The position numbers were made by a program, and so were the translations under genes. Of a stretch of 62,813 bases of DNA, positions 1,452 to 62,194 are shown piece after piece; the stretch's first letter is position 1, and each line of letters opens with the position of its first letter. This stretch comes from a virus. The stretch lies in the IMG/VR virus record IMGVR_UViG_3300025711_000009; one strand, given 5' to 3'. The notes beneath the pieces are model-generated. The model saw nothing but the letters and a program-made list of their open reading frames with translations. It did no database searches and was not told where the DNA came from.

Positions 1452-1766
1452 ATGAGCGTCGACATCTCCCACGGCTCCACCCAGTGGGGCACCGAAACCC
1501 TCTCCTACAGCGCGTTCGCCAACATGGGCCGCCACCTCGCCCACGTCCTCCCGGACAGCGACTGGCGTGCGATCCGATTCCTGTTCGACCCCAAGTCCGA
1601 CATCGTCGGACTGGTCAGCCCCCAGCAGGCCGGAGCCATCGCCGACGTCTTCGCCAAGGCCGCCCAGCACCCGAAGATGCCCCACGACTGGGCGAACACC
1701 GTCCGCCGGTGGGCTGCCGCCGGCTACCGCGCCCACGCGGCCGGCGAACCGTGGAGCTGGTCATGA
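1452..1766 (+). CDS. Hypothetical protein (104 aa)
   Basis: ATG lies 1 nt after the previous stop; high GC3. Confidence 0.65.
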   Translation: MSVDISHGSTQWGTETLSYSAFANMGRHLAHVLPDSDWRAIRFLFDPKSDIVGLVSPQQAGAIADVFAKAAQHPKMPHDWANTVRRWAAAGYRAHAAGEPWSWS

Positions 1767-1972
1767 GCGCCGCGATCGCCGCGACGACCAGGGCCCGCAG
1801 CCTCCTCGCTTTCATCGGGGTGCTGTCGATCCTCGGCCTCAACTGGACGGCCACCACCCGCATCGTCGTCGGTCTCGCCCTCGCCGTAGCCATCGCCCTG
1901 GAGATCAGCGGCGACGGCCACCGCATCTGGCCCCGCCACCTTCGCCCCACCCGCTACGACAAAGCCGCCTAA
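1763..1972 (+). CDS. Small 2-TM membrane protein (Spd-like?)
   Basis: ATGA overlap with the upstream stop. Hydrophobic stretches: LLAFIGVLSILGL and IVVGLALAVAIAL. Confidence 0.7.
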   Translation: MSAAIAATTRARSLLAFIGVLSILGLNWTATTRIVVGLALAVAIALEISGDGHRIWPRHLRPTRYDKAA

Positions 1973-1999
1973 CCCCACCCGACAGAGAGGAACAAGACC

Positions 2000-3532
2000 G
2001 TGACCAGCGACCACCGTTCCTGGCAGGAACGCGACGCGGAAGCCGAGCTGATCCGGGTCAAGACAGCGAACGTGGCCGCCAGCGCGGACGCGGACCGGCG
2101 CCGCCGGGAGGCCCTCGACGCCCCGAAGATTGAAGCCGCCCTGGCCAGGGCCGCGGAGATCCGGCGAGAGGCCGCCGCGAAGGCCGAGGCTGAGGAGAAG
2201 GCCAAGGCCGAAGAGAAGGAAGCCGCCGCTAAGGCCCGCGCCGAAGCGCTCGCCGCCGCGAAGGCTGAAGCCGAACGCCAGGCCGAGATCGCCCGCCGTG
2301 ACGCACGGGCCGCCAAGGCAGTGAACATCGCCGTGGTCGCCGCCCTGCTCGTGGCCCTGCCGCTGCAGCTCCGCACCTTCTGGAACCCCGACCGCTGGTG
2401 GGAAGTCGCCGTACCGTTCGTCCTCGAAGGCCTCGCCTGGGTGTTCATCCGCCTCGCCGAAGCTGCCATCCCCGCCCGCCGCATGGTGTGGCACTACATC
2501 GTCGGAGTGTTCGCCTGCTCCGCGTTCGCCGCGACGGTGAACGCCCTGGACGGGTTCATGCACGACGACATCGGCCCGATCTTCGGCATCGTCGGCGGCG
2601 TCTGCTCCATCGCCGGCCCCGGAATCAAGGTCGTGCACGAGTTCGCCGCCCGAGCCAAGGCCGGCAAGGCGACCTGGACGGAGAAGAAGATCGCCGAGGC
2701 CAACGCCGCCCAAGCGGCGGCCGAGGCTGAGGTCCGTAAGGCCGAGCTGGCCGCCCAGACCGAAGCTAAGCGCCGTGAGGCCGACGCCCGCCAGAAGGCC
2801 GAAGCGGACAAGCGCGCCGCCCACGAAGCGAAGGTCGCCGCAGACAAGGCCGCCGCCGAGGCCGCCCTTGCCGCCCAGGACGAGCAGCGCAAGAACCTCT
2901 ACCCAGGAGCCTGGCAGCAGTATGAGCTGATCCTCGCCGCCAACCCGCTCGGGTCCATCAGCCGGGACCGCGCCTGGGACGAGGCCCGCCGAGCCGCCGA
3001 TCACCCGGACGTCTGGGACCACTACCGGGTCTTGGTCCTGAACACCGTCAACGTCAAGGCGGCCGACCTGTGGGCCGACGCCTGGGCGACAGTGAAAGGG
3101 CTCCCCGTCGGTCAGACGATCGAGTCTCTGGCCGCAAAGCTGGCGGCTCGGGAGTACGTGAACCAGACCTTGGCCGAGCACATGGACGCCGCCGGATACC
3201 TGGCCGTGGAGGAACTCCTGGCGGGGATCTTCGGGGGTGGCGGCGGCGACGGCGGAACCCCCGCGAAGGGGGGGCCGAAGAAGCCTCGCGGCGGTCCATC
3301 CGAGGGCGCTGCAGGCCTTGTGAGCATTGGGCAGGAGGGGGATACGGCCCCGCGCTACAAGGACGTCGTAGAGCCCCTCTCTGAGGCCGACCTGAAGGCC
3401 GCCCGCGAGCTCCACGACGCCGACCCGGACGGCTTCTCCACCCCGGCAGTCCAGAAGCTGCTCGGTCGCTCCAGCCGCTACTCGAAGCGCGTTCGAGACG
3501 CCATCACGAACCCGAAGGAGGTAGACCAGTGA
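2000..3532 (+). CDS. Membrane protein with multi-TM core flanked by Ala/Glu/Lys coiled coils (DUF2637/spread-protein-like)
   Basis: 510 aa. KAEAEEKAKAEEKEAAAKA-type repeats lie on both sides of the hydrophobic core WWEVAVPFVLEGLAWVFIRLAEAAI...GIVGGVCSIAGPG. Sits directly upstream of the FtsK-like gene. Confidence 0.8.
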   Translation: MTSDHRSWQERDAEAELIRVKTANVAASADADRRRREALDAPKIEAALARAAEIRREAAAKAEAEEKAKAEEKEAAAKARAEALAAAKAEAERQAEIARRDARAAKAVNIAVVAALLVALPLQLRTFWNPDRWWEVAVPFVLEGLAWVFIRLAEAAIPARRMVWHYIVGVFACSAFAATVNALDGFMHDDIGPIFGIVGGVCSIAGPGIKVVHEFAARAKAGKATWTEKKIAEANAAQAAAEAEVRKAELAAQTEAKRREADARQKAEADKRAAHEAKVAADKAAAEAALAAQDEQRKNLYPGAWQQYELILAANPLGSISRDRAWDEARRAADHPDVWDHYRVLVLNTVNVKAADLWADAWATVKGLPVGQTIESLAAKLAAREYVNQTLAEHMDAAGYLAVEELLAGIFGGGGGDGGTPAKGGPKKPRGGPSEGAAGLVSIGQEGDTAPRYKDVVEPLSEADLKAARELHDADPDGFSTPAVQKLLGRSSRYSKRVRDAITNPKEVDQ

Positions 3533-5544
3533 GCACCGCCCCCGAGTACCCGCGGCTGCAGCTCGTCAAAGAACAGCCGGCCCCCCTCGAGGGCGTCGTC
3601 ATCGAGAAGGCCAGCCGACCCGCATGGCTGGAGGCCGCAGTCGATCACGTCAAGGCGAACAGCGGCTACGCCCCGCTCGTCGGCCGCGGCTACCGGCGGC
3701 TCGGAGCCCACTGGCTCGACCGCTACCACGACGACTACCCCGCGATGATCGAGACCGCCCGGCGCGAACTCCGCGAAGCGCCCGCCGCGAAGCAGCGCGA
3801 ACTCAAGACCCTCGTCCGCGAGCAGCGGGCCGAATACCGGCGCCACAGACTCCTCCACGCCGGAGTCACCGGCGCCTGGACCTTCGCAGGCGGAGCCGGC
3901 ATCGCAGCCGGCACCCTCACCGGCGGTCTCTGGGTCGACCTCGCCGCCGGGCTCGGCGCCTACCTCTACGGCATCTGGCAGGGAGCCGGCGACGACCCGC
4001 AGCCCCCTACGATCACCACCCCCGGACCGGTCGTCCCGATCCTCGGCGGGCCGACTGGCCCCGCCGATGACGAACCCGAACTCCGACTCGCCCTCGCCCA
4101 GCTCGGCTTCCCCAACGTCACCATCATCGACAACCCGCCCACGAACCCGGACGGCACCCGCACCATCACCTTCGACCTCGGCGGCACCGGCACCGTGACT
4201 GACCTCCGCAAGAAGACCGAGGGTCTCGCCGCCGCCCTCGGCCGCGACCTCACCATGGTCGACATCGACAAAGTGCCCGGGAACGCCGGTCGAGCCAGCC
4301 TCTGGACCGCCAGCGCAGACCCCTTCGAAACGCCGCGGCCGTCCCCGTTGCTCGCCCAGCGCGGAGCCATCGACTCCTGGCGTTACGGCGTCCCCGTCGC
4401 CTACGGCAAGCGCGGCAACACGATCAACCTGCCGCTCCTCAACCAGAACTTCGTCATCGCAGGGAAGACCAGGTCAGGCAAGGGAGTCGGCGCCTCCAAC
4501 CTCGCTGTCGGCACGGCCATGGACCCGTGGGTCAACCTCCGAATCGTCGCCGGAAAGGAGAACGGCGAGTGGGACGCCTACGCCAAGGCGGGCGTCGCCG
4601 CGACCTACTTCAAGCCCAACCCCGAACGACTCCTCGCCCTCCTGCAGGCGCTGCTTGCCGACAAGAAGCGCCGGGAGCGAGAGCTCGGCAAGCTCGGCAA
4701 GTCCAAGCTCATCCACGACCTTCGCCCGCAGATCGGCGGAGTCGAACTGCTGATCATCGACGAGCTTGCGACGTACACCCGGCCCGGGAAGCCGCTGCGC
4801 GACGAGATCCTCGAAGCCCTCATCGAGTACTCCGCCGTTGCCGCAGCAGCAGGAGAGCTCTGCGCCCTCATCACGCAGTACCCCGAGGTCGACGTCGTCC
4901 CGCAGGCCCTGAGCATGAACTGCGGCGGCAAATGGGCCATGCTCGTCGAGAACGCCACCCAGTCCAACGCCATCCTCGGAGCCGGTCAGGCCGGCGCCGG
5001 ACGGGACGCCTCGAAGTTCGACCCACCCCGGCCGGGACTGGGCTGGCTGGTCAACCCGTTCGCCGGGATCACCGACCTGGCCCGCTCCTTCGACCTGGAC
5101 GAAGACGAGCGCGGCGAGATCAGCCTGCTGATGCAGCGGGCAGCGGAGCAGCGGAGCATGCTCGGCCGTCTGTCCGGCCAGTGGGACGACCCGATCGAGA
5201 AGCACCTGCTGAACGCGACCGGCCTGTCCTCGGCCGCCGGCGGTCCGAAGAACGACGGCGTGCCCGGCCGTTCCGTCACGCAGCTGACGGGTGAGCAGCG
5301 GCTCCAGCTCGACGCCCTGCGTGGGGCGCTGGCCGCCATGGACCAGCTCGGCCGGGATGTCGCCACCCTCGACGAGATGACGGAAATCATCGGGGGCGGC
5401 ATGACCCGGGACCGGCTGAGCGAGCTGTTGCGCGCTGGAGGGGCGGGCGGCGCCGACAAGGTGAAGATCGACGACAAGTGGACCCGCGGCGGCTACCAGC
5501 GGGCCGACATCGCGGATGCCGAGAGGTTCCTGAGCGGATCCTGA
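3529..5544 (+). CDS. traB: FtsK/SpoIIIE-family dsDNA translocase, TraB-like
   Basis: 671 aa. N-terminal hydrophobic segment, Walker A FVIAGKTRSGKGVGASN, Walker B ELLIIDEL. GTGA overlap with the upstream gene. Confidence 0.9.
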   Translation: MSTAPEYPRLQLVKEQPAPLEGVVIEKASRPAWLEAAVDHVKANSGYAPLVGRGYRRLGAHWLDRYHDDYPAMIETARRELREAPAAKQRELKTLVREQRAEYRRHRLLHAGVTGAWTFAGGAGIAAGTLTGGLWVDLAAGLGAYLYGIWQGAGDDPQPPTITTPGPVVPILGGPTGPADDEPELRLALAQLGFPNVTIIDNPPTNPDGTRTITFDLGGTGTVTDLRKKTEGLAAALGRDLTMVDIDKVPGNAGRASLWTASADPFETPRPSPLLAQRGAIDSWRYGVPVAYGKRGNTINLPLLNQNFVIAGKTRSGKGVGASNLAVGTAMDPWVNLRIVAGKENGEWDAYAKAGVAATYFKPNPERLLALLQALLADKKRRERELGKLGKSKLIHDLRPQIGGVELLIIDELATYTRPGKPLRDEILEALIEYSAVAAAAGELCALITQYPEVDVVPQALSMNCGGKWAMLVENATQSNAILGAGQAGAGRDASKFDPPRPGLGWLVNPFAGITDLARSFDLDEDERGEISLLMQRAAEQRSMLGRLSGQWDDPIEKHLLNATGLSSAAGGPKNDGVPGRSVTQLTGEQRLQLDALRGALAAMDQLGRDVATLDEMTEIIGGGMTRDRLSELLRAGGAGGADKVKIDDKWTRGGYQRADIADAERFLSGS

Positions 5545-5705
5545 CCCCGGAAACCGGACCGTTTTGCCCGGAACGCCCCCCGGAAAGAGGGCGGAAACCC
5601 CCCGGAAAGCACCCGGAACGTTGCCGGGCCAGCCCTAGGCGTTCCGCTGCCATTCCGGGGGACATACCACCGCAAACCGCATGCATGCCGGGCCGATTCC
5701 GGCCC
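5543..5705. repeat. Array of CCCGGAA-type 7-9 bp repeats immediately 3' of traB-like gene (clt-like)
   Basis: Forward copies: GACCCCGGAAA, GCCCGGAAC, CCCCCGGAAAG, GGCGGAAAC, CCCCCGGAAAG, ACCCGGAAC. Inverted copies: GTTCCG, ATTCCGGGGG, ATTCCGGCCC. Confidence 0.75.
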
Positions 5706-5737
5706 GCAAACCACCACAAACCGCATTGGAGCTCACC

Positions 5738-6033: not shown

Positions 6034-6489
6034 ATGAGCAAGGACTACCGCGGCAAGAGCGGCGCACGGCAGCTGGAGCGCGACGCCCGAGAAGGAATGA
6101 TCGTCTACTACGTCACCGGGCACGCCACCAACCTCGCCGCCCAGTTCGAAGCCCAGACCTGGTCCGCCCTGATCTGCACCCACTACTCCCGAATGTGGCA
6201 GGCCTGGATGTTCGGCCACTACTCCGTACACGCCGGACGCCCGCTTGAAAAGAAGGGCAGCATCCAGGCCGCGAACGTCGTCCTCCAGCTCGGCAGCACG
6301 TACTGCAGCACCACCCCGCCCCTCGGCCTCCGTGAACTCGCCTCACCCGAACGCGGATGCGGCCTCCGGCCCGAGATCACTGGCGACATGTACGACTTCG
6401 AGGGCGCCACCAGCTTCGGCCACTGGAACGACCCGAACATGGCCCGCAAGGTCGACGAGCACTCCGGATGGGGGCGCGGCCGCCGATGA
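6034..6489 (+). CDS. Hypothetical protein (151 aa)
   Basis: AAAGGAG RBS 6 nt upstream of the ATG. Confidence 0.7.
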   Translation: MSKDYRGKSGARQLERDAREGMIVYYVTGHATNLAAQFEAQTWSALICTHYSRMWQAWMFGHYSVHAGRPLEKKGSIQAANVVLQLGSTYCSTTPPLGLRELASPERGCGLRPEITGDMYDFEGATSFGHWNDPNMARKVDEHSGWGRGRR

Positions 6490-6950
6490 TCGCCACCCGC
6501 ACGGCCGCCGCGACCCGCGCGGCGGCCCCGGCCCTCACCCTCGACGAGCGGCTCACCCTGAGCAGCCTGGCCATGGATGAGCGGCTCGCCGGTGCCCACG
6601 GCGGCATGGCTATCCGCACCGCTGGCATCGACACCGAGGCGCCCGAAATCCTGGCCGCACCCATGCCAGCCGCCGCCCCGAAGCCGGCCACGGTCGAGGG
6701 GGTCTTCGCCGAGGCGGCCCGCCTGATCTCCGTCCACGGCTGGATCCAGGGCTACGTTGGCCACGCAGACGTCGGCTACTGCCTCATTGGCGCCATCCGG
6801 AAAGCAGCTGGCGGCGAAGGGCCACTCGCCGACCAGGCATGCGACGCCATCTGGGACCGGATCCGGCGAGAAGCACCCGACGCCCTCTCGGCCGGCGCCT
6901 GGAACGACGCCCAGTCTGGACCAGCGCCCGTGATCCGAATGCTCGGCTGA
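6486..6950 (+). CDS. Hypothetical protein (154 aa)
   Basis: ATGA overlap with the upstream stop. Motif HGWIQGYVGHADVGYCLIGAI. Confidence 0.7.
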   Translation: MIATRTAAATRAAAPALTLDERLTLSSLAMDERLAGAHGGMAIRTAGIDTEAPEILAAPMPAAAPKPATVEGVFAEAARLISVHGWIQGYVGHADVGYCLIGAIRKAAGGEGPLADQACDAIWDRIRREAPDALSAGAWNDAQSGPAPVIRMLG

Positions 6951-8334: not shown

Positions 8335-9045
8335 ATGCGCCGCCACCGTCTCATCTGGCTCCTCCTCGCCGCACTGATCGCCACGGCCGCCTGCACCCCC
8401 ACCGCGGCCGCCGCGACCCCGCCGACGATCCGCGTCATGCCGCTCGGGGATTCGATCACCGCCGGCCTCGGCTCCACCTCCGGCGCCGGATACCGGCTCC
8501 CGCTGTGGAACCGGGTCGCAGGCCAGTCCCGGTACCGGGTCGACTACGTCGGCTCTCAGCACGACGGCGCCATCCCCGACCCGGACCACGAGGGGCATCG
8601 CGGCTGGCAGATCGCGCAGATCCGGGCCGAGATCGACAGCTGGCTGGCCGCCTCCCAGCCCCGCTACGTGATCCTGCACATCGGGATCAATGACCTCGCC
8701 TGGGGCGCAGACCCCGCCGTCGCAGCCGGCCAGTTCGCCGACCTCGTCGCACGGATCTACGCAGACCGGCCCGGCGTCATCATCATCGTCATGGGGTTGA
8801 TCCCGACCAGTGCCGGGATACAGGCCCAGGTTGCCGCCTACAACGCCAAGATCCGCACCACCCCCGGGCCCCACTACGTGGACGCGCCCGCCCTCACCAG
8901 CAGTGAGATGGTCGACGAGCTCCACCCCAACGACCAGGGCTACCAGCGGATCGGCGACGTGATCTACACCGAACTCAACCGGCTGGAGATCGCGAGGCAG
9001 AGGGCCGGCAGTCAGCCGCCCGCCACACGGATCCCACGCGGATAG
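8335..9045 (+). CDS. Secreted/lipoprotein SGNH (GDSL) hydrolase
   Basis: Signal peptide with lipobox LIATAAC. Block I PLGDSIT, block III GINDL, block [10 protein letters not shown]. Confidence 0.9.
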
Positions 9046-9062
9046 ACCACGAGGAGGTGGCC

Positions 9063-11414
9063 ATGTCGTTCCCCGCTGGCGCCTCCACGATCACGATTGT
9101 CGGAACCTTCCCAGTCTCTGTCGGTGGCGGCACGCGTGCCGGTCGCGTGGTCTTCACCCCGACCGCGGTCCTCGTTGACTCCACCCAGCATGCGATCTAC
9201 AGCGGCGGCGGGCCCGTCGCGATCGCCAACGGGACCATGACGGCCACCCTGCTCTGCAACGACGACCCCGACATCAAGCCCACCGGCTGGCGCTGGCACG
9301 TCGAGGAACAGCCGGCTGGCGGCGTCTGGCGGGACTACTACATCGACCTGCCCTCCACCCTCGGGGCAACCGTCCACCTCGACCAGGTCGCCGAAGTCCC
9401 GGCGCCTGACGGAGGCGAAGGGGGCGCCGTTGGACCTCAGGGGCCGGCCGGCCCTGCCGGACCCCAGGGTGCTACGGGCGCCACTGGAGCAACAGGCCCC
9501 CAGGGCCCGGCTGGACCGACGGGGGCAACTGGCCCGGCGGGTGCCGATGGAGCGACCGGCGCGGCAGGCCCGCAAGGGCCCAAGGGGGATACCGGCGATA
9601 CGGGCCCCGCTGGGCCGGCGGGCGCGACAGGTCCGCAAGGGCCCGCAGGTGCAGACGGAGCCACGGGAGCTACAGGCCCCCAGGGTCCCACCGGAGCAAC
9701 CGGACCGCAGGGAGACGCTGGCCCCGCAGGAGCGACAGGGGCCACCGGAGCGACGGGCGCAACAGGGCCCACTGGGGCAACGGGCGCGCAGGGCCTCCAG
9801 GGCGTCCCCGGTGTGGACGCGTCCGGGAATCGCACCAGCGAGGTCCGCATCACCGACGGAGCCGTCCAGGATCTGGCCAGTGCCGCCGCCTGGACGATCG
9901 CCACAACCAGCGTTGGCACCCAGCTCAAATGCTCCATCCCCGCCGAGGTGGGCGACCGAATCCGCGTCGATATCGGCATGCTGTACTCCGGTACCCGCTA
10001 CCTCGACGCCGTCCTCCTGGATTCGGCCGGCGCCATCAACCTCTACGCAGGCACCCTCACCACCAGCCCGCTCGCCGAAGGCAACCCCGAGCTGTACCCG
10101 TCGACCTCGTTCGGCAAAGCATCCTCGGGGATTGTCTTCACTGTCGCGGCCGGACATCTCTCCGGCGGGCAGGCGACCATCGCCCTCGCCAACCAGGGCA
10201 CGGGCGCCGGCAGGGTCTACGCCTTCTCCGGCTACCCCTTCCGCCTCGGCCTGACCAACATTGGGCCGGCAATCGCCCCTTCCGGCATAAGCGTCGCCCA
10301 GACCAGCACGCCCACGTCCGGCTACATCAAGTACGCGCCCGCCGGAGTCGCGCTGTCCGGCAGTGACGTCACCGGCCCGTTCAGCTACCTCGGCGCCGGA
10401 GGCTTCCAGATCGGCGTCGGCACCCCCGATTCAACCTACGTCCTGCCGACGACGAGGTATCCCAACACCCGGGGCACGCTCAGCTCCAGCCAGTCGATCT
10501 ACAGCATCGAGTTCGGAACGGACGCGACCGCCTTCCAGCTGCGCTTCAACTGGCAGACCGGCGGATGCATCCGGATCACGGTCGACGGTCGCCGCATGAC
10601 CGACCTCATGCAGTCCCTGGGTGGCATCACCCTCGGCAGCAGCCACTTGATGACCGTCAGCCTGGGCGCCGCCCAGCCGCGAACGATCCGCCTCGACTTC
10701 AGCGTCGCCCCATACGGCGGGATTTTCCTCCCGCCAGGGGCCTCGATGTGGAAGCCAGCGACGCCGAGCAAGCGAATCATGATCCTCGGGGACAGCATCT
10801 CCGGTGGCAGCAGCATGAACACTGCTGGTGGCGCCGGAACTTGGTTCCCGCGGGCCGCCCGCCTCCTCGGGTACAGCGACATCTGGAACGAGTCCCTGGG
10901 AGGCACCGGCTACATCACGGCCGGCTCCTTCGCCACCCTCGGCACCCGGGCCCCGATCGACGTCATACCGAACGCCCCCGACACGCTGATCATCTCGGCC
11001 GGCTACAACGACAACGGTGGCAGCCAACCGTCCATCAGTTCGGCAGCAGCCGGCCTGTACAGCGCCATCAAGGCCGGCCTGCCCAACGCCGCGATCTACG
11101 TGATCGGCTGCTGGTCACCCAGCGGCTCCCCCGCCACGTCGATCACCAACACCGACAACACAATCAAGGCGGCCGCAGCTGCGGCCAACCTGCCGTTCAT
11201 CTCGCCCCTCACCGGCGGCATCTACAACTCGGCAGGCACGCTCATCGCCACCCACGGGGCGTGGATCACCGGCACCGGCCGGGTCGGCGCAACCACCGGA
11301 TCCGGCAACGCCGACACGTACATCGGTACCGACGCCGTCCACCCCACGGACGCCGGCCACAAGTACCTAGGCGACCGGGTCACCGCGGCAATCCAGGAAC
11401 TCCAGAACGCATAG
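9063..11414 (+). CDS. Collagen-like fibre protein with C-terminal SGNH hydrolase domain
   Basis: GAGGAGG RBS. About 40 Gly-X-Y triplets. C-terminal motifs [14 protein letters not shown] and [10 protein letters not shown]. Confidence 0.9.
9411..9815 (+). repeat. Gly-X-Y collagen-like triplet repeat (coding)
   Basis: [31 protein letters not shown]... read in frame. Confidence 0.9.
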
Positions 11415-11423
11415 GAGGTGGCC

Positions 11424-12122
11424 GTGGACGACCTCCTCATGATCGTGCCCACGCGCGGCAGGCCGGACAGCGTCCCAGCCATCATGGACTGCTGGCGGCA
11501 GACCGGCGCCACCGCCGACATCCTGTTCGCCGTCGATGACGACGACCCCATGCTGCCCGGCTACCGCGAGCACATGGAAACCCTCAATGACCCGCACATC
11601 CGCTGGCGGACCGGGCCTCGCCTGCGGATGTGCGGCACCCTCAACGCCGCCGCCGTCGAGATGGCGCCGCACTACCGGTTCCTCGCCTTCATGGGCGACG
11701 ACCACCGTCCTCGCACGCCCGGCTGGGATGAGCGCTTCCGGATCTGCATGTCCGCCGGCCCAGGCATCGTCTACGGCAACGACCTGCTGCAGGGCGAGAT
11801 CATGGCCACCGCCGTAGCGATGACCTCGGACATCGTCACCACGCTCGGCTACATGGCACCGCCCGCCCTCATCCACCTCTGCCTCGACCTGGTCTGGATG
11901 GACTGGGGCCGTGGCATGGGCCGCATCACCTACCTCGGCGACGTGATCCTCGAACACATGCACCCGGCCAACGGCAAGGCAGACATCGACGCCGGCTACA
12001 TCGAGTGCAACAGCTCGGCCGTGTCCACCGCTGACGCCACCACCTACTACGACTACCGCGACAACGGCGGCCTCCAAGCCGACCTGGAGAAGCTGCGGGC
12101 CCTCATCGAGGAGACGGCATGA
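11424..12122 (+). CDS. GT-A fold glycosyltransferase (family 2-like)
   Basis: IVPTRGRP, AVDDDD and GDDH motifs. GTG start 5 nt after AGGAGG; an alternative GTG lies at 11418. Confidence 0.8.
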   Translation: MDDLLMIVPTRGRPDSVPAIMDCWRQTGATADILFAVDDDDPMLPGYREHMETLNDPHIRWRTGPRLRMCGTLNAAAVEMAPHYRFLAFMGDDHRPRTPGWDERFRICMSAGPGIVYGNDLLQGEIMATAVAMTSDIVTTLGYMAPPALIHLCLDLVWMDWGRGMGRITYLGDVILEHMHPANGKADIDAGYIECNSSAVSTADATTYYDYRDNGGLQADLEKLRALIEETA

Positions 12123-12715
12123 GCATCGACAGCGTCATCGACGCCTGGAACGAAGCAGACCCGTCCGCGATCCACCCCACCCGCGGCATCTCTGAAGAGG
12201 CGTACCAGGCATCCGGGCAGAACCAGGCCGCTCTGCTGGCCACCGTCCTGCCCGAGGGGTGCCGCGTGGTCGACTTCGGCTGCGGAGACGGACGCGTCGC
12301 CATCCCCCTCGGCCGAATGGGCTACCGCGTGACGGCTGCTGACTCCTCAGAGAACATGCTGCGGCGATTTCGGGAGCGTGCGAACGCCTACCCGACCGTA
12401 CTTACCGACGGCACCGACCTGCACGAGAAGTTGGGGCACAAGACCGACGCCGTCATCTCGCTCGCCGTCCTGATCCACCACAGCTACGAGGCCGGTGAGC
12501 GCATCATCGAAGGCCTCCGCACTGCGGTACGCGCGAATGGCCTCCTCATCCTTGACTGGCCTGTCGCCAACGAACCCCGCGAGGGCGGCGGCTGGATCAA
12601 CGTCACCACCTGGTCCCGCGAACAGCAGGACGAAATCTGCCAGCGGATCGGCCTCAAGCGCCTCGACGAACCTGGTCTGCCTTGGGCGGTCTTCCGCGCG
12701 GTCAAGGCCGGCTGA
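12119..12715 (+). CDS. Class I SAM-dependent methyltransferase
   Basis: VVDFGCGDGRVAIPL motif I; ATGA overlap. Confidence 0.9.
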   Translation: MSIDSVIDAWNEADPSAIHPTRGISEEAYQASGQNQAALLATVLPEGCRVVDFGCGDGRVAIPLGRMGYRVTAADSSENMLRRFRERANAYPTVLTDGTDLHEKLGHKTDAVISLAVLIHHSYEAGERIIEGLRTAVRANGLLILDWPVANEPREGGGWINVTTWSREQQDEICQRIGLKRLDEPGLPWAVFRAVKAG

Positions 12716-13596
12716 TGCGCGTCCTCCTCACCGGAGCCGCGGGCTTCGTCGGCCGCCACCTGCACCAAGCGCTGTGGGAGCGCGACTACCAGGTTTCCGC
12801 GATCGACCTCCGGTCGAACCGCGCCGTGCTCAAGCGGGACGCCCTCGACCACTTCCGCACCAGCGACGTCAAGTTCGACTTGGCCATCCACTGCGCGGCC
12901 ATCGTAGGCGGACGGGCCAGCATCGACGGCAGCCCCCTCGGCGTCGCCACCAACCTCGGCCTCGACGCCTGGTACATGCGGTGGCTGGCCCGCACCAAGA
13001 CTCCACGGGCCGTGTACTTCTCAAGCTCTGCCGCATACCCGGTCGCCCTCCAGCAGCCAGGCGAAGTCCGGAGGCTGGTGGAGACGGACATCGACTACGA
13101 GCAGCCCGGCCGCCCGGACGCCACCTACGGCCTGGCCAAGCTGACCGGTGAGCAGCTCTGTCAGTACGCCGCGGCGACCGGCACCCGCATGACGGTACTC
13201 AGGCCGTTCTCCGGCTACGGCAGCGACCAAGACGACAGCTACCCCTTCCCCGCGTTCATCCAGAGGGCGAAGCGGCGGCAGGACCCGTTCGAGATCTGGG
13301 GCGATGGAAGCTCCACCCGCGACTGGATCCACATCGACGACCTCGTGGGCGCCACCCTCGCAGCCGCCGAGCAGGACGTCACGGGCCCCGTGAACCTGGG
13401 CACCGGCAAGGCGACGAGCTTTGACGAACTCGCCGGGCTCGTCACCGCGACGGCTGGCTACCGGCCCGAGCTGAAGCACCTGCCGACCGCGCCGCAGGGC
13501 GTCCATCACCGCGTATGCGACCCGTCACGGATGCTCGACTTCTACACGCCCACCGTCACCCTCGAAGAGGGGATCCGGCGGGCACTCGCCGACTAG
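12715..13596 (+). CDS. NAD-dependent sugar epimerase/dehydratase (SDR)
   Basis: LLTGAAGFVGRHL Rossmann motif and YGLAKLTGE (YxxxK). TGATG overlap. Confidence 0.9.
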   Translation: MRVLLTGAAGFVGRHLHQALWERDYQVSAIDLRSNRAVLKRDALDHFRTSDVKFDLAIHCAAIVGGRASIDGSPLGVATNLGLDAWYMRWLARTKTPRAVYFSSSAAYPVALQQPGEVRRLVETDIDYEQPGRPDATYGLAKLTGEQLCQYAAATGTRMTVLRPFSGYGSDQDDSYPFPAFIQRAKRRQDPFEIWGDGSSTRDWIHIDDLVGATLAAAEQDVTGPVNLGTGKATSFDELAGLVTATAGYRPELKHLPTAPQGVHHRVCDPSRMLDFYTPTVTLEEGIRRALAD

Positions 13597-14763: not shown

Positions 14764-14852
14764 AAGGGCGGCCCTGGTGGCGGCCCTTGCCTGCCTTTCT
14801 CGTCCGCCCCCTTGCTGGCCCTGGTGGCCGGCCGCAGACCCTGGAGGTCGTC

Positions 14853-15290
14853 GTGGGCACTCGTGGTCCCGTCCCCAAACGCTCCGAGGAGCGCCGCCGC
14901 CGCAACCTCGACGACGGCCCCGGTCTCATCCAGGCCCCGGCCGGCCCGCCGACTGACTTGCCGGAACTCCCGGAGCCCGACGAGCTGTGGCATCCGATCG
15001 CCACCGAGTGGTACCTCTCGCTCCGCGAGTCCGGCCAGGCCGCGTTCTATCAGCCCTCGGACTGGGCGATGGCCCGCTACGCCGCCGAGCTCATGTCCCG
15101 CGGCCTGCAGTCGGATCGCCCGCCGAACGGTCAGTACGTGGCTGCGCTCAACAGCGTGATGGCCTCGCTGCTGACGACCGAGGGCGACCGTCGGCGGGCC
15201 CGCATCGAGCTGGAGCGCAAGAAGCCCGTGACCGCGGTGCCGGCCAGCGTCACGGCCATAGCCGACTACCGATCTTCGATCGGTGGCTGA
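14853..15290 (+). CDS. terS: Terminase small subunit
   Basis: GTG start after GGAGG. N-terminus GTRGPVPKRSEERRRRN is typical of P27-type small terminases. Confidence 0.75.
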   Translation: MGTRGPVPKRSEERRRRNLDDGPGLIQAPAGPPTDLPELPEPDELWHPIATEWYLSLRESGQAAFYQPSDWAMARYAAELMSRGLQSDRPPNGQYVAALNSVMASLLTTEGDRRRARIELERKKPVTAVPASVTAIADYRSSIGG

Positions 15291-17013
15291 CGAGGAAGTC
15301 CCCGAGGTCGTCACCCCGTTCACGATCGGTCCGACCTGGAAGCGGGGACCGGATGGGAAGTTCCTGCTGCCCGAGTACACGCTCGGCTGGCATGCCCTCG
15401 CGTGGACGGCGACCTACCTGCAGCACTACGTCGGCGCCCCGTGGCGGTACACGCCCGAGCAGGCCCGGCTGACCCTGTGGTGGTACGCCATGGACCCGGC
15501 GACGAACCGGTTCCTGTGGCGGGATGGTGTCATCCAGCGGATGAAGGGCCACGGCAAGGACCCGCTGGTGGCGACCTTCGCGGCCTTCGAGTTCGTCGGC
15601 CCGTGCCGCTTCGGGCAGGTGGCCGACGAGGGAAACGAGTGGGGCGTGCCCGCGGGTCAGCCGCTGGGGCAGCCGCATCCGGCGGCCTGGGTACAGATCG
15701 CCGCAGTCAGCCAGGACCAGACCAGAAACACGATGACCCTGTTTCCGTCGATCCTGACGCGGCGGGCCATCGAGGAGTTCCGGATCGATCTCGGCAAGGA
15801 GATCATCTACGCCGACAAGGGACGGGCCCGGATAGAGGCAGTCACCAGCTCCCCTCGTGCATTGGAGGGCGGCCGGCCGACGTTCGTGTCCCTCGGGGAG
15901 ACGCACCACTGGCTGGAGTCGAATCAGGGTCACGAGATGGCGGCGGTCATCGAGCGTAACGCCACCAAGTCAGCAGACGGTGCGAGCCGGACACTGGCGA
16001 ACACGAACGCCTACGAGCCGGGCGAGGACTCGGTGGCGGAACGCACGCGGGAGGCCTTTGAGTCGGCCGCGGCCGGCCGTGCGGTCGATACGGGGCTGTT
16101 CTACGACAGCCTCGAAGCGCCCGCCGAAGCGAAGCTGACCGAAGCCTGGATCATTCCGACGCTTCGCGCGGTCCGCGGCGATTCGACGTGGCTGGACATC
16201 GACCGGTTGAAGGCGTCCATTTTGGACGTCCGCAACCCGCCATCGAGGTCGCGCCGCTTCTGGTTCAACCAGATCACGGCAGCTGAGGATGCGTACCTGG
16301 CACCCTACGAGTGGGACGCCTGCCCTCACGACGGCATCGACCTGCAGCCGGGCGACGAGATCGTCGTCTTCTTCGACGGCTCCAAATCAGACGACGCGAC
16401 CGGCCTGGTCGCCTGCCGCCTCTCGGATGGCTTTACCAAGACGCTCGGCGTCTGGCAGAAGCCGGCGAACTGGCCCGACGGTACCCCGTGGCGGGTGCCT
16501 CGCGAGGAGGTCGACGGCGTCGTGGATCTGGCCTTCGCCACCTACAAGCCGCTCGCATTCTTCGCCGACCCAGGCTCGGGCTTCGACGAGGCGGACGGCG
16601 AACGCTACTGGGACGGCTACATCGACGCCTGGGCCCAGCGGTACGGGAAGCGGCTGAGGCTTAAGGCGGTGGCCTCCGGTCACGGCCAGCACGCGGTCAT
16701 GTGGGACATGCGCGACCGGCGCCGACAGCAGACGTTCACCGAGGCCGTGGACCGCTTCTACCGGGACGTACTCGAACGCCAGCTCACGCATGACGGCCAC
16801 AAGGTGCTGCGTCAGCACATCGCCAACGCCCGGCGCCGCACCAACGCCTGGGGCTACACGATCGGCAAGGAGCATCGGGAGTCGGCCCGCAAGGTCGACT
16901 TGGCGGTGTGTGCGATCGGCGCGCGGATGCTGCGCCGGATGGTCATGAACTCGACGGCCTGGACCAAGAGGTCAACGGTCCGCGGTAAGGGACGGGTGGT
17001 GGTGCTGCGGTGA
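15283..17013 (+). CDS. terL: Terminase large subunit
   Basis: 576 aa at the expected position. Nuclease-domain motif VVFFDGSKSDDATGLV. Confidence 0.9.
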   Translation: MADEEVPEVVTPFTIGPTWKRGPDGKFLLPEYTLGWHALAWTATYLQHYVGAPWRYTPEQARLTLWWYAMDPATNRFLWRDGVIQRMKGHGKDPLVATFAAFEFVGPCRFGQVADEGNEWGVPAGQPLGQPHPAAWVQIAAVSQDQTRNTMTLFPSILTRRAIEEFRIDLGKEIIYADKGRARIEAVTSSPRALEGGRPTFVSLGETHHWLESNQGHEMAAVIERNATKSADGASRTLANTNAYEPGEDSVAERTREAFESAAAGRAVDTGLFYDSLEAPAEAKLTEAWIIPTLRAVRGDSTWLDIDRLKASILDVRNPPSRSRRFWFNQITAAEDAYLAPYEWDACPHDGIDLQPGDEIVVFFDGSKSDDATGLVACRLSDGFTKTLGVWQKPANWPDGTPWRVPREEVDGVVDLAFATYKPLAFFADPGSGFDEADGERYWDGYIDAWAQRYGKRLRLKAVASGHGQHAVMWDMRDRRRQQTFTEAVDRFYRDVLERQLTHDGHKVLRQHIANARRRTNAWGYTIGKEHRESARKVDLAVCAIGARMLRRMVMNSTAWTKRSTVRGKGRVVVLR

Positions 17014-35980: not shown

Positions 35981-36565
35981 ATGGACTTCGGATACGCCCG
36001 GGTGTCGACCACTGACCAGAACCCGGACCATCAGATCGACGCCCTCCTCCGCGCCGGCGTCGACCGCGACAACATCCACATCGACTACTTCAGCGGCGCC
36101 AAGGCCTCCCGCCCCGAGTTCGACATCCTCATGAAGCGCCTCCGTGAAGGCGACACCCTCAAGGCCACACGCTTGGACCGCATCTCCCGCTCCCTGCTCC
36201 ACCTCGTCACGCTCGGCGAAGAGCTGCAGCAGCGGAAGGTGGGGCTGCACATCATCGAGCAGAGCATCGACTCGTCCACCCCCGAAGGGCGCGCGATGTT
36301 CGGCATGCTCGGAGTCATGGCGCAGTTTCAACGCGAGCTCATTCACGCGAACACGATGGACGGCCTTGCAGCCGCTCGGGCCCGCGGTCGCGTCGGAGGC
36401 CGAAGGCCGAAGCTCAGCGAGCAGCAGGCCAACCTCGCTCAGGAGCTGTACGACAAGCGCGAGAAGACCGTGCAGGAGATCGCCGACCTGTTCGGCGTGC
36501 CGCGTACCACCGTGTACGGGCACCTGAACCGCTCGGGGGGCAACGCCCGCAAAGCCAGCAAGTAG
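35981..36565 (+). CDS. Small serine recombinase (resolvase/invertase family)
   Basis: 194 aa. FGYARVSTTDQ catalytic Ser motif and a C-terminal HTH (VQEIADLFGVPRTTVY). Confidence 0.95.
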   Translation: MDFGYARVSTTDQNPDHQIDALLRAGVDRDNIHIDYFSGAKASRPEFDILMKRLREGDTLKATRLDRISRSLLHLVTLGEELQQRKVGLHIIEQSIDSSTPEGRAMFGMLGVMAQFQRELIHANTMDGLAAARARGRVGGRRPKLSEQQANLAQELYDKREKTVQEIADLFGVPRTTVYGHLNRSGGNARKASK

Positions 36566-41734: not shown

Positions 41735-43045
41735 TCAGTGTGCCTCAGATGGGAGAACAATGGGAGGCGCTACCTTCCTCGCCCGCTCCGTCTTCTCCCA
41801 CCGCTTCTGCAGCACGTCGATGACCTGCTGCTCCATCGCAGGCGTCACGTCAGAGTAGACGCCCCGGACCCCCTGCAGAATGTGACCGAGCCTCTCCTCG
41901 ATAGCCACCGCCGGCACTCCCATCTCCTCAAGCATGGGCGAGTGTGCGTGCCTCATCAGGTGGATGCGGCGGCCCGCGAACGACGGCACCTTGGGCATCT
42001 TGTCCCTGGCGTAGCGCCCAGTCCGCTGGTCAGAGCCATCTCGCACGGGCTTCCAGTAGTACGTGTGGAAGTCGGTGGTCAGCAGAGGGCCGCCGCTGAT
42101 TGCCGGGAACAGCCACTCGGAATCATGACTGTCGAGCAACTGCTGATGCAGTGCTGCGAGAAAGGGTGGAATTACCAAGCTCCTCTCGGACCCGTACTTT
42201 GGAAGCGCCAGGACGGGCACGCCCTTCTCGTCCGGGCGGGCCGGGTCCTTGCGGTACTTGTGCTGCCACTGCACCCGGATGACCGGCATCGGCTTCTTGC
42301 CGCAGTAGCGCAGGAGGGCTTTCTCCCGGCGCTTTCGGTCTTCGTCACACTCGGGCCAGTTGGGGCCGACGAACTCTCGCCTAAGTCCGTACATCTCCCC
42401 TACACGCATCCCGGTGTAGGCCTTGGTCAGCATGAAGACATAGCCCGTAAGGCCCCAGACCTGGCGCGCATTGTCGGCCAGCTGATGTAGGTCTGCTGTC
42501 GGAACGGTTTCCTTCTCTTCACGCTCCGGACGCACGTACCGGCCGCGGCGCCTGTTCTCCTTGGGGACTGGAGACTCCGGGATCAGCGCCGGCTTGTGGG
42601 ATGCCGCATCATCCATGATCATACAGAAGAGGACTTTGAGATCGCGCACATAGTTCGCGGAGTACTTCTCTTTGAGGCTCTTCATCCAGAGCTGGTAACC
42701 AAGCGTCGTGATTGCATTGACCGGCTCCTCGCCCCACTTGGGCAGGATCTGTGCCCTCAACCGCTTTCGATAGAGGTGCACGGACGTCGGATCCAGGTCG
42801 CGCGACTTGAGCCAGAGGTTGGCCCAATGCTTGAACAGGATCGATCCGTCGGCCTTTACGACGAGGCGCCCGTTGCGGGCGTCCGACTCGCGGTCCAGGC
42901 CGTAGTTCAGGGCCGCCTCTTCATCCCAGTCCTCGCTGGGCATGCCTGACTTGTAGCCGTAGATCTTTCTACCGGTGTCGGGGTTGACCCGCCCGGTGTC
43001 CCACTTGACGCGGAGGCTGTTGCCCCGCCATTCCGTCCATGGCAT
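41735..43045 (-). CDS. int: Tyrosine integrase
   Basis: 436 aa. TGMRVGEM (Arg I), HLMRHAH (HxxR) and LGHILQGVRGVYSDV (His/Tyr). Confidence 0.95.
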   Translation of the reverse strand: MPWTEWRGNSLRVKWDTGRVNPDTGRKIYGYKSGMPSEDWDEEAALNYGLDRESDARNGRLVVKADGSILFKHWANLWLKSRDLDPTSVHLYRKRLRAQILPKWGEEPVNAITTLGYQLWMKSLKEKYSANYVRDLKVLFCMIMDDAASHKPALIPESPVPKENRRRGRYVRPEREEKETVPTADLHQLADNARQVWGLTGYVFMLTKAYTGMRVGEMYGLRREFVGPNWPECDEDRKRREKALLRYCGKKPMPVIRVQWQHKYRKDPARPDEKGVPVLALPKYGSERSLVIPPFLAALHQQLLDSHDSEWLFPAISGGPLLTTDFHTYYWKPVRDGSDQRTGRYARDKMPKVPSFAGRRIHLMRHAHSPMLEEMGVPAVAIEERLGHILQGVRGVYSDVTPAMEQQVIDVLQKRWEKTERARKVAPPIVLPSEAH

Positions 43046-43463
43046 GAGGACCCCTTGCGGTGGTGTTGCGGGTTCCCGGCTGGCACCCCTGCCACCGGGT
43101 CTCCGCACCTACTGGTCAGGCGCTGCTCTGCCCCACCGGGCAGCCGCCGCATCCCTCACAGTCTCCTCCGCTACGCCTCACGGTCTCACGCATGGACTGC
43201 CGGGCGGCGGCGTCCTTCGTGATCGTGGGAGGCGCCACGCAGACCATTCTCCCATCGGCTGATCCGGACCAACCCGCAAACGTCGGTCCGATGTCCATGA
43301 GTAGCAGGTGTCTGCGCACACCGATTCCCCCCTTCCGGGACTGGGAATCCCCCAAGGTGATGCTTCGACTCTCCCACGTGTGGGGCTGGTTGGAACCTGT
43401 GTGAGCCAGATTGACTGTCACATTTTCAACATCGCGAAAGGTTGTACGACAAAGGGCTGAGTT

Positions 43464-52022: not shown

Positions 52023-52579
52023 CCAGCACCGTCTCCAGCTCCATCAAGGCCAGTCGCGCCATCAGCATCCGCCCCCGCGTCGCCCTGCCGATCGAGACGT
52101 ACAGCAACGACATCGACTGGATCGCCGTCCAGCGAGTCATCGAGGACGACCGCCCACTGCCCGCCCTGACCCGCGAAGAACAGCGGGTCGCCGCGCTCCT
52201 CCTGACCGCGGCCGGCCGCAGCGAGAAGGACGCCGCCCGCCTGGTCGGCACACACGACCGCCAGGTAACCCGGTGGAAAGAGCAGTCCGGCGCAAAGCCC
52301 CCACGACCCTGCACGGTTGACGACTGCGACAGCCCGATCAAGGCGCTCGGACTCTGCCACCGCCACTACCGGCAGGAACAGCGCCGCCGGAACCCGCAGC
52401 CCGCCAAGTCCACCAAGTCCACCAAGACGACGTGCCGCCGCGGACACGCCTACCCCGACTGCCTCGGCTACCGGTCCAGCGGCAAGCCCTACTGCCGGCC
52501 CTGCGACCGAGCCGCTCGCAAGGCCTACCGGGAACGGGCATCAGCCGCCACCCAGACCGACATGCGGAAGGCCGCCTGA
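52019..52579 (+). CDS. HTH + Cys-rich (zinc-ribbon-like) DNA-binding protein
   Basis: GTGA overlap. SEKDAARLVGTHDRQVTRW and CDSPIKALGLCHRHY. Confidence 0.7.
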   Translation: MTSTVSSSIKASRAISIRPRVALPIETYSNDIDWIAVQRVIEDDRPLPALTREEQRVAALLLTAAGRSEKDAARLVGTHDRQVTRWKEQSGAKPPRPCTVDDCDSPIKALGLCHRHYRQEQRRRNPQPAKSTKSTKTTCRRGHAYPDCLGYRSSGKPYCRPCDRAARKAYRERASAATQTDMRKAA

Positions 52580-52649
52580 TGGGCCGCCGGATCGCCACCG
52601 CGGCCTAGCCGCTTCCCCACCCGCACCAGCCAGAGAGAAGTCCCTCCCA

Positions 52650-53492
52650 ATGGCCCGTATCCGTTCGATCAAGCCGGAGTTCTTCACCTCCCTGACGATC
52701 GCCGAGCTGCCGCTGTCCGCGCGCCTCACGTTCATCGGCTTGTGGACCTACGTCGATGACAACGGCGTCGGGCCGGCGGATGCCCGTCTCATCCGGGCCG
52801 CGATCTGGCCCCTCGAAGAGGCTCCGGACATCCTCCAGAGGACTCGCGAGGACCTCCAGAGGCTTCACGCGGCCCGACTCATCGCCCTGTACGAGGTCTC
52901 CGGACGGCCTCTCGTCGCGGTCAACAGCTGGTCCGAGCACCAGAAGGTCAGCCACCCCCGCAAGAACCGCTTCATGCGACCCGAAGAGGCCGCTGAGCTG
53001 GCCAAATACCCGACTCCGGAGGACTTCCAGAGCCCTCCGGAGGATTACCAGAGTCCTCCGGAGACCCTCCGCCCTGAGCAGGGAGCAGGGAGCAGGGAGC
53101 AGGGAGCAGGGAATAGAGGCGACGCGGAGCCTCCGGCATCCGCTGACGACCCTCCCCGAGCCGACGTCGAACGCGTCTGCCGACACCTGGCCGACGTACT
53201 CGAGAAGAGCGGCAGCAAGAGGCCGATGATCACGGCGAAGTGGCGCAACGACACCCGCCTGCTGCTCGACCGGGACGGCGTCACCACAGAGCAGGCCCTG
53301 GCTGCCATCGACTGGGCCCACGCGGACAGCTTCTGGACGGCCCACATCCTCAGCCCCGGCAAGCTCCGCGCCAAATACGAAACCCTCCGCCGCCAGGCGA
53401 TGAACGGCGGCCGGAAGCACGCCGCCGGCCCCCAGACCACCGAACGCAACCTCACCGACGAGGAGATCGAAGATGCCTCCCACTTCGCCTGA
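52650..53492 (+). CDS. Putative replication initiator / replisome organiser
   Basis: MARIRSIKPEFF N-terminus, which I recall from prophage replication proteins. Sits upstream of the loader and helicase. Has a low-complexity linker. Confidence 0.75.
   Translation: MARIRSIKPEFFTSLTIAELPLSARLTFIGLWTYVDDNGVGPADARLIRAAIWPLEEAPDILQRTREDLQRLHAARLIALYEVSGRPLVAVNSWSEHQKVSHPRKNRFMRPEEAAELAKYPTPEDFQSPPEDYQSPPETLRPEQGAGSREQGAGNRGDAEPPASADDPPRADVERVCRHLADVLEKSGSKRPMITAKWRNDTRLLLDRDGVTTEQALAAIDWAHADSFWTAHILSPGKLRAKYETLRRQAMNGGRKHAAGPQTTERNLTDEEIEDASHFA
53076..53110 (+). repeat. Perfect heptanucleotide tandem repeat (GAGCAGG)x5 inside the initiator gene
   Basis: Counted base by base. Confidence 0.95.
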
Positions 53493-58014: not shown

Positions 58015-58313
58015 CCGACCAGCCAGACCGCCGTGATCTCGCCCGTGCCGCCTTCGACGCGGAACTCCAGGTCACCGGCTACTCGCTGCCCCGCTACGCC
58101 CGCCAGCAAATCGCCGATGCCATCCTCACCGCCACGCTGGCCGCCGTCGCCGAAGAGCTCCGCGGCCAAGCCAACCACCACGACACCTGCGGCGAACTGT
58201 CCAAATACCCCGAGACCGCAGCCGGCCACCACAACCTCGCAGCCGGATTCCTCGCCGCCGCAGCCCACGTCCACAGCATGAACCGACAGTCGAAGGGAAC
58301 CCCCGATGACTGA
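58011..58313 (+). CDS. Hypothetical protein (100 aa)
   Basis: GTGA overlap. Confidence 0.6.
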   Translation: MTDQPDRRDLARAAFDAELQVTGYSLPRYARQQIADAILTATLAAVAEELRGQANHHDTCGELSKYPETAAGHHNLAAGFLAAAAHVHSMNRQSKGTPDD

Positions 58314-61982: not shown

Positions 61983-62001
61983 ATCAAGAGGTTAGTGCTT
62001 C

Positions 62002-62104
62002 GTGGCTACGACCTGCAAGATTCCAGCCATCTGGGTTGTGGCTACAAAAAGTCTCCGCATCGGCTTGCTTCGTAGCCACAAACACCCTAGCTTTGTGGCT
62101 ACAA
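62002..62104. promoter_or_regulatory. Four GTGGCTAC/GTAGCCAC operator-like sites in divergent promoter region
   Basis: cGTGGCTACg (62002), TTGTGGCTACAA (62036), cGTAGCCACAAa (62072, inverted), TTGTGGCTACAA (62093). Confidence 0.6.
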
Positions 62105-62194
62105 GGCGACTTCGGAAACGAAGCAGCCCCGCCCGGTGCGTCAACACCAGACGGGGCCTTGGCCGCGCCCCCTTCATCACAAGGGAGTACAACC

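Follow-up and report, generated by a model that had tools for sequence, protein, structure and literature searches.

Can a temperate phage of Streptomyces carry, in addition to its virion genes, the apparatus by which plasmids of the same hosts move double-stranded DNA (dsDNA) between cells? This question is raised by the IMG/VR virus record IMGVR_UViG_3300025711_000009, a stretch of 62,813 nucleotides that was analyzed as a whole and is hereafter called the window. A preliminary description of this DNA, made from the letters alone, had placed in it a conjugation module of the Streptomyces-plasmid type, consisting of three open reading frames (ORFs), and all three were found at the coordinates given, on the + strand (1763-1972, 2000-3532, and 3529-5544). 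The comparisons of sequences, profiles, and predicted structures presented here lead us to favor, at slightly better than an even chance, a DNA-transfer and spreading module of the type found on the Streptomyces plasmid pSG5, which constitutes a conserved cassette of a lineage of integrase-encoding temperate siphoviruses and would move phage DNA from cell to cell.

The 671-aa product of the third ORF (3529-5544, + strand) was analyzed by BLASTP, hhalign, Foldseek, and AlphaFold2 (AF2) modeling and is, as judged from its sequence and predicted fold, a TraB-type dsDNA translocase with a motor of the FtsK/HerA-type fold. Helices rich in Gly and Ala form its N-terminal part, the alpha/beta motor that follows is FtsK-like, and the C-terminus (approximately residues 588-668) is a winged-helix-like domain, for which the AF2 model (pLDDT, the predicted local distance difference test score, of 83.6) exhibits an H-b-H-H-b-b topology. 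By BLASTP, pSG5 TraB aligned with residues 46-580 at an E value of 1e-25, and a TraB-family profile built from 28 homologues matched pSG5 TraB with 99.8% probability in hhalign (E 5e-30, 382 columns), as compared with 95.8% probability for the E. coli FtsK motor (E 7e-9, 196 columns); against FtsK in the PDB the family profile reached an E value of 3.5e-9. Pairwise BLASTP scores against the 671-aa protein descend from prophage relatives (640-840 bits) through the TraB-like proteins of Streptomyces plasmids (195-254 bits) and pSG5 TraB (100 bits, E 5e-25) to the FtsK-like protein of mycobacteriophage Schatzie (37 bits), E. coli FtsK (30 bits), pIJ101 Tra (27 bits), and pZL12.71c (21 bits). As pIJ101 Tra falls no nearer than FtsK, it is the pSG5 branch of the TraB family that the protein matches. 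Both this gradient and the hhalign E values group the protein with Streptomyces plasmid TraB and not with chromosomal FtsK or the FtsK-like proteins of cultured actinophages, in line with what had been proposed.

The predicted structure of the full-length protein (pLDDT 69.8) found its best PDB match in the FtsK motor on dsDNA (Foldseek, E 2e-9), followed by the conjugation coupling protein TcpA, and the top 23 matches were all FtsK motors or TcpA (E 2e-9 to 7e-7, about 320 aligned columns). The protein might be suspected of being a cellular-FtsK-type or generic phage ATPase engaged in host takeover or chromosome handling, a suspicion nourished by its match to phrog_1358, annotated as 'FtsK/SpoIIIE-like' (PHROGs, 9.6e-18), and by the frequent occurrence of FtsK-like genes in cultured Streptomyces phages (e.g., Jaresh and Naboo) and in cluster J mycobacteriophages. 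We consider this scarcely credible in view of the 37 bits obtained with the mycobacteriophage protein versus 100-254 bits with the plasmid-borne TraB-like proteins, and of the tblastn search, which retrieved no match in 50,697 phage records. As to the hydrophobic segment previously described at the N-terminus, the Gly/Ala-rich helices at approximately residues 110-150 do align with the membrane region of pSG5 TraB by BLASTP, but this part of the protein is only weakly hydrophobic, staying below the Kyte-Doolittle threshold of 1.4, and was modeled with low pLDDT.

The gene directly upstream (2000-3532, + strand) encodes a 510-aa protein that profile comparison, hidden Markov model (HMM) searches, and hydropathy lead us to class as a four-helix membrane protein of the DUF2637 type in the position of SpdB2. 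It begins with a charged coiled coil, followed by four hydrophobic helices within residues 104-212 and by another charged region, and it ends in a tail resembling a helix-turn-helix (HTH); hydropathy delimits the four transmembrane (TM) segments as residues 104-122, 135-153, 162-185, and 191-212. No match to this protein was obtained in Pfam, NCBIfam, or PHROGs, and direct BLASTP against the 404-aa ORF that lies immediately upstream of traB in pSG5 was not significant, so that the relationship is seen by profile comparison only. A family profile built from 24 homologues aligned with that pSG5 ORF at 99.1% probability in hhalign (E 6e-19) over 289 columns extending from the TM core to the HTH-like tail, and at 96.8% (E 2.8e-10) with a protein annotated by NCBI as DUF2637, whose gene precedes a TraB-like one on plasmid NZ_CP108495.1. 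The family HMM scored the plasmid-borne members at 1.6e-22 and 4e-8, and the order of DUF2637 followed by TraB recurs on a second plasmid; in phiC31, pZL12, and pIJ101 the same HMM found no match. Among the (pro)phage loci, an SpdB2-like ORF precedes the TraB gene in all 10 of those examined by the family HMM and in 17 of the 25 examined by tblastn. SpdB2 has been described as a protein of four TM helices, and the four helices, the flanking charged coiled coils, and the coupling to traB observed here agree with that published description (PMC4447253). The earlier picture of a multi-TM, Spd-like protein flanked by coiled coils is thereby borne out.

The junctions between these genes are tight. 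The stop codon of the preceding gene, which encodes a DUF7739 protein, overlaps the start of the first module ORF (ATGA, 1763-1766), a GAGAGGA ribosome-binding site lies ahead of the GTG start at 2000, and the junction between the 510-aa and 671-aa ORFs combines AAGGAGG with a GTGA overlap at 3529-3532, the very overlap for which translational coupling of the two had been claimed. The first ORF (1763-1972, + strand) encodes a 69-aa protein with two TM helices by hydropathy, is located upstream of both large ORFs, and is kept at the same position in two related loci, L004 (58%) and L015 (54%). Its size, its two TM helices, and its location upstream stand as previously described; the likeness to Spd proteins that had been ascribed to it found no counterpart among the families of Pfam, NCBIfam, and PHROGs, although it may be a small Spd-like partner of the larger proteins.

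Downstream of traB, a gap of 193 bp separates its stop codon (5544) from the next gene (5738). Within this interval (5545-5737, not assigned to a strand) the heptamer CCCGGAA occurs as direct copies at 5546, 5567, 5579, 5601, and 5612 and as an inverted copy at 5653, and an imperfect inverted repeat is formed by 5599-5620 and 5640-5661. Six of the 25 copies of CCCGGAA in the genome thus fall within 114 bp (5546-5659), and an unbiased scan ranked it as the second most clustered 7-mer of the genome after the replication iterons. No sigma-70-like promoter was found in 5545-5737, and a terminator reading of the repeat region was discarded, no intrinsic terminator having been found there. Of 26 related (pro)phage loci, 19 have three to six copies of CCCGGA in the 220 nt following the TraB stop codon, where about 0.3 would be expected, and five copies of CCCGGA(C) directly follow traB in pSG5. 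The TraB recognition sequence of pSVH1 is reported to be GACCCGGA (Vogelmann et al. 2011), which has the CCCGGA core in common. Across related loci the repeat motif varies together with the C-terminal domain of TraB: CCCGGAA is used by the window and by L015, which share a distinctive wing sequence, CCCGGAC by most loci with an RVNGY wing, CGAGCAG repeats are found in L028 and L032, whose C-terminal domain differs, and other repeats are present in L019 and L027, which have a QVRGY wing. The cognate clt that had been sought for this traB thus has a putative counterpart, and on sequence grounds we regard the repeats at 5546-5659 as a strong clt candidate.

The module is widely distributed. More than 336 homologues of the TraB protein were detected, all of the named ones in Streptomyces, and the 120 homologues listed share 52-77% identity, nearly all of them covering more than 70% of the query, a pattern of purifying conservation. 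The nearest host candidates with sequenced genomes are S. erythrochromogenes, S. vinaceus, and S. goshikiensis. At least 22 IMG/VR viral contigs of 34-92 kb and several prophages carry the module. In prophages whose portals belong to different families, its place lies between the genes for replication and those for packaging. One might suppose that the cassette has no role for the phage, as inert cargo or as the scar of a recent recombination with a plasmid or an actinomycete integrative and conjugative element (AICE); phage genomes are mosaic, and the best plasmid match, the 92,592-bp circular 'plasmid' CP042280.1 of Streptomyces sp. WAC08241, has a TraB-like gene that is apparently frameshifted near position 21602 of its locus (L003). 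This we judge very unlikely, for over 25 distinct (pro)phage loci, differing in their structural modules, have intact syntenic copies with 50-77% identity, in which the coupling and the repeats are preserved. CP042280.1 itself is recorded as a plasmid in PLSDB (L003) and as a viral contig in IMG/VR (L032), and may be a phage-plasmid relative.

The module forms the end of a rightward operon that starts near position 62196 and crosses the junction of the circular genome. Diverging from it is a leftward cluster made up of a 77-aa ORF, a gene combining HTH and NUDIX domains, a NUDIX gene, and a fusion of a GIY-YIG nuclease domain with a GntR-type HTH. The divergent intergenic region between them (61983-62195), which is AT-richer, contains four operator-like TTYGTGGCTAC sites (61996-62107, not assigned to a strand) and a hairpin with a 15-bp stem at 62125-62158; all four genome copies of GTGGCTAC sit in this region, and TTYGTGGCTAC is found nowhere else in the genome. 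By its sequence, the region looks like an operator set controlling the operon that runs into the transfer module. The fusion protein (59880-60710, - strand; Pfam GntR 9.5e-11, GIY-YIG 1e-4) is a candidate regulator within the leftward cluster. The module of L038, the closest relative (77% TraB identity), is preceded at a few kb by a divergent gene for a full GntR+UTRA regulator, and that of L004 likewise has such a regulator a few kb upstream; these regulators are homologous to the GntR protein of pSG5 and to KorA of pIJ101. The HTH of the fusion is 41% identical to the L038 GntR protein. Control by a GntR-type protein, as envisaged in the preliminary description, finds support by analogy in L038 and L004; the GIY-YIG/GntR fusion is real, but the window protein keeps the GntR HTH only, without UTRA. 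The two NUDIX hydrolase genes, which the preliminary description does not contain (60545-61042 and 60964-61635, - strand, the latter with an N-terminal HTH_3; Pfam NUDIX 2e-23 and 2.5e-15) are kept in prophage L005 (82% and 60%). In gene content this pair resembles Pif of pSAM2, a NUDIX conjugal immunity factor, and NUDIX genes are frequent in AICEs (PMC3218068).

Joining these observations, that is, the homology of both large proteins, their order and coupling, the repeat cluster with its conserved position and co-variation, and the conservation of the cassette, we infer from sequence the activities that they would serve, namely DNA binding, ATP-driven pumping, and transfer. In this mechanism, the excised or replicating circular phage genome would be bound by the C-terminal winged-helix domain of a membrane-anchored TraB, the binding site being the CCCGGAA repeats immediately 3' of traB. 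A TraB ring would then pump dsDNA through the envelope where hyphae touch, through septal cross-walls, or by both routes, with the SpdB2-like protein and the 69-aa protein as putative parts of a spreading channel. The regulator and NUDIX cluster would repress the module and might confer a Pif-like conjugal immunity. The outcome would be virion-independent movement of phage DNA from cell to cell alongside ordinary infection, and we infer in this conditional sense the dual spread by particles and by conjugation that had been suggested for this genome.

The same apparatus could instead work within a single mycelium. Once the phage has infected or the prophage has been induced, it would carry their DNA through septal cross-walls or to spore compartments, as a means of spreading or segregation in which no mating with another strain takes place. 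Virions already serve the transfer between cells, and the consistent pairing of the SpdB2-like gene with the TraB gene (by HMM and by tblastn, as given above) would suit such a role. In plasmids, however, the same TraB also drives the intermycelial step, and the NUDIX pair resembles a conjugal immunity that is relevant only to transfer between cells; confinement to one mycelium appears to us rather unlikely, though it is the alternative we take most seriously.

Several observations weigh against a module that moves phage DNA from cell to cell. The Pfam FtsK_SpoIIIE model scored only 14.7 bits with the 671-aa protein, below its cut-off of 24, and for this reason the TraB assignment rests on profile, BLAST, and fold comparisons. 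The Pfam DUF2637 model misses the 510-aa protein and matches, weakly, one of the 24 family members; since Pfam also fails on the pSG5 counterpart, we take the missing match to be uninformative. The best Foldseek match of the C-terminal domain of TraB was the winged-helix domain of Rex, with a probability of 0.99 and a TMq of 0.57, yet an E value of 0.13, and FtsK gamma, considered as its structural match, was rejected, not being among the top 50. The repeats and the C-terminal domain are adjacent, so their co-variation may reflect linkage and not recognition, and the repeats might just as well serve the downstream genes as an operator or as a promoter element. Finally, tblastn with the 671-aa and 510-aa proteins retrieved no relatives among the 50,697 records of cultured phages, and a DNA-level search of the module region against cultured phages likewise yielded no match.

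A further counterargument concerns the ATPase motifs. The core motifs previously pointed out are both present, Walker A as GKTRSGKG and Walker B as LLIIDE, but the Walker A motif is noncanonical, with Gly in place of the Mg-coordinating Ser/Thr, and TQYP replaces the TQRP of FtsK. The GKG form is found in 117 of 120 close homologues, and the position of the FtsK arginine finger is occupied by Tyr in 107 of 120; the P-loop was modeled with low confidence by AF2. Because of these deviations, motor activity or ATP-driven pumping cannot be assumed. The TraB-like protein might have lost motor activity and act as a membrane-bound DNA-binding or exclusion factor that, for example, blocks or hijacks the transfer of resident plasmids and AICEs, excludes superinfecting phages, or tethers the genome, and the motifs, deviant throughout the clade, as well as the low P-loop pLDDT speak for such a protein. 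We nevertheless find this improbable: no homologue in the alignment departs from Lys in Walker A, from Asp-Glu in Walker B, or from the sensor Gln, the same deviant motifs occur in TraB-like proteins of large Streptomyces plasmids that have an upstream DUF2637 partner, and the putative cognate repeat cluster is retained. The GKG form is also present in the nearest plasmid relatives, while GK[ST] and TQ[RK]P are found in more distant relatives and in pSG5, and this partition of the motifs between close and distant homologues indicates that the 671-aa protein belongs to a distinct TraB sub-clade. In this sub-clade, plasmid-borne members included, Walker A reads G-x-[ST]-R-S-G-K-G, with an invariant Arg within the P-loop. 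Together with TQYP this sequence pattern possibly represents an alternative catalytic arrangement, and the clade poses the question of how an FtsK-family motor might work without the Mg-binding Ser/Thr and the arginine finger.

The genome in which the putative transfer module resides can be outlined as follows. An exact repeat of 127 bp is common to both ends of the window, which indicates a circular assembly of 62,686 bp (G+C approximately 69%), and the same TraB protein recurs on contigs of 60.5-62.8 kb in data sets obtained independently (JGI, ENA, and Logan), which fits a discrete replicon. As judged from its gene content, the window is the complete genome of a temperate siphovirus of Streptomyces. 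It encodes TerS (14787-15290), TerL (15283-17013), a portal, a protease, a major capsid protein, a 1397-aa tape measure, Dit, a collagen-like/GDSL fiber, an endolysin, and a holin, together with a tyrosine integrase (41735-43108, - strand), so that the circle of about 62.7 kb with full virion, lysis, and integrase genes that had been described earlier was recovered with its gene families matched. Replication and recombination genes comprise a lambda-O-like initiator with internal iterons (52317-53492), a DnaC-like loader, DnaB, DnaN, and RecT. The densest repeat cluster of the genome (52890-53110, about 200 bp) consists of seven copies of CTCCGGA and five of AGCAGGGA; since it lies inside the lambda-O-like initiator gene, these repeats are probably origin iterons in a lambda-like layout. 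Relaxase and type IV secretion genes had been described as missing from this replicon, and there were none by Pfam among the ORFs scanned, some small ORFs being outside the scan. The same non-exhaustive set of ORFs contained no ParA or ParB and gave no match to RepSA, RepAM, or Prim-Pol.

Other genes are located around the module. The DUF7739 protein encoded immediately upstream (104 aa, 1452-1766, + strand; Pfam PF24881, E 9e-31) has its gene adjoining the module also in L004, L006, L038, and many IMG/VR loci. Further upstream in the same operon, a 170-aa, SprT-like protein with an HExxH motif (667-1179, + strand; weak Pfam matches) accompanies the module in some relatives, with tblastn matches in L003, L018, L029, and L032, and also on plasmid CP042280.1. 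A DUF6197 gene lies downstream (6486-6950, + strand; Pfam PF19698, E 4e-16), as it does downstream of the TraB-like genes in L004, L005, L006, and L038. DUF7739 and DUF6197, as well as DUF6221 (58306-58851), repeatedly accompany the TraB/SpdB2-like pair in prophages, and the three may be components of the transfer system that have gone unrecognized. A block on the + strand (8335-13596), located after the transfer module and ahead of the terminase, encodes a GDSL lipase, a 785-aa collagen-repeat/GDSL fiber protein, a glycosyltransferase-like protein, an S-adenosylmethionine (SAM) methyltransferase, and an NAD-dependent sugar epimerase, and may serve the sugar modification of the cell envelope or of the virion. 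A separate gene at 35981-36565 (+ strand) could be the driver of a tail-fiber or host-range inversion switch.

Streptomyces grows as a compartmented mycelium, and the movement of phage DNA within it is poorly understood. A kit of TraB, SpdB2, and candidate clt would offer a concrete route for virion-independent spread and for a transfer that ignores receptor-based host range. Going further, the uncultured and widespread lineage of temperate Streptomyces phages to which the window belongs might also be AICE-like conjugative elements, their genomes of 55-90 kb exiting both as virions and as naked dsDNA through a GKG-type TraB acting on its own clt, with a Pif-like NUDIX and GntR-type circuit choosing the route; we put this forward tentatively, with somewhat less than even confidence. 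If true, phages of multicellular bacteria would regularly include conjugation or intramycelial spreading in their life cycle. Because genomes and viromes often contain the cassette while the cultured phages searched lack it, finders of prophages and of integrative and conjugative elements will misclassify such elements.

How this module relates to described systems can be considered beginning with phages. For the actinophages phiC31 and VWB, a published proposal holds that their SpdB2 homologues help phage DNA to spread (PMC4447253). We rejected phiC31 as a bearer of the SpdB2-like family described here, since the family HMM has no match in it, and its annotation contains no TraB- or FtsK-like gene. 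The FtsK-like protein of mycobacteriophage Schatzie differs from the window protein in having 442 aa, canonical GKS and TQRP motifs, and no Spd-like gene annotated beside it; as its comparison with E. coli FtsK gives 329 bits, the FtsK-like proteins of cultured actinophages, as sampled by Schatzie alone, are of a different, cellular type. Our literature search found no description of a pSG5-type cassette of TraB, SpdB2, and clt in integrase-carrying temperate phages. In the plasmid-phage pZL12, conjugal transfer requires the tra locus (PMC3583192). Like the window, pZL12/phage ZL12 (GQ919031) combines virions with a transfer locus, in which an FtsK-like gene and two adjacent genes lie beside the packaging genes, not far from a GntR regulator; it differs in being a 90-kb ParAB plasmid-prophage, whereas the window has an integrase and lambda-like replication genes. 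A direct relationship was rejected, as pZL12.71c (FtsK-like), 72c, and 73c (a membrane protein) have no detectable similarity to the window proteins.

AICEs such as pSAM2, SLP1, and pMEA300, which are approximately 9-25 kb in size, resemble the window in bringing together a tyrosine integrase, transfer by TraB and Spd proteins, GntR-based kil-kor control, and a NUDIX immunity protein (Pif). They differ in replicating by RepSA, RepAM, or Prim-Pol and in having no virion genes, whereas the window has lambda-O-, DnaC-, and DnaB-like proteins with a full virion and lysis set. By the definition used by Ghinet et al. (2011), an AICE combines Int, Tra, and a Rep of the RepSA, RepAM, or Prim-Pol type; the window has Int and Tra, yet an AICE-type Rep was not found in the ORFs scanned and a full virion is encoded, so we do not assign it to this class. 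A phage equipped with a transfer kit nonetheless blurs the boundary between prophage, AICE, and plasmid.

The closest non-phage relatives reside on the large Streptomyces plasmids NZ_CP108495.1, NZ_CP108415.1, and CP042280.1 (37-56% identity over the aligned regions), whose TraB-like proteins share with the window the GKG form of Walker A and the upstream DUF2637 gene; the repeats downstream differ. The gene order of pSG5, a plasmid of Streptomyces ghanaensis/viridosporus, is that of a GntR gene on the - strand, small ORFs, the 404-aa SpdB2-like ORF, a small ORF, traB, and repeats. This plasmid has a size of 12 kb, replicates by the rolling-circle mode, and lacks virion genes; its TraB, at about 27% identity, has a canonical GKS Walker A and TQKP in contrast to the GKG and TQYP of the phage protein. 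With the window it has in common the coiled-coil four-TM protein, traB, and the cluster of CCCGGA copies after traB, and its divergent GntR gene recurs in L038, the window's closest relative.

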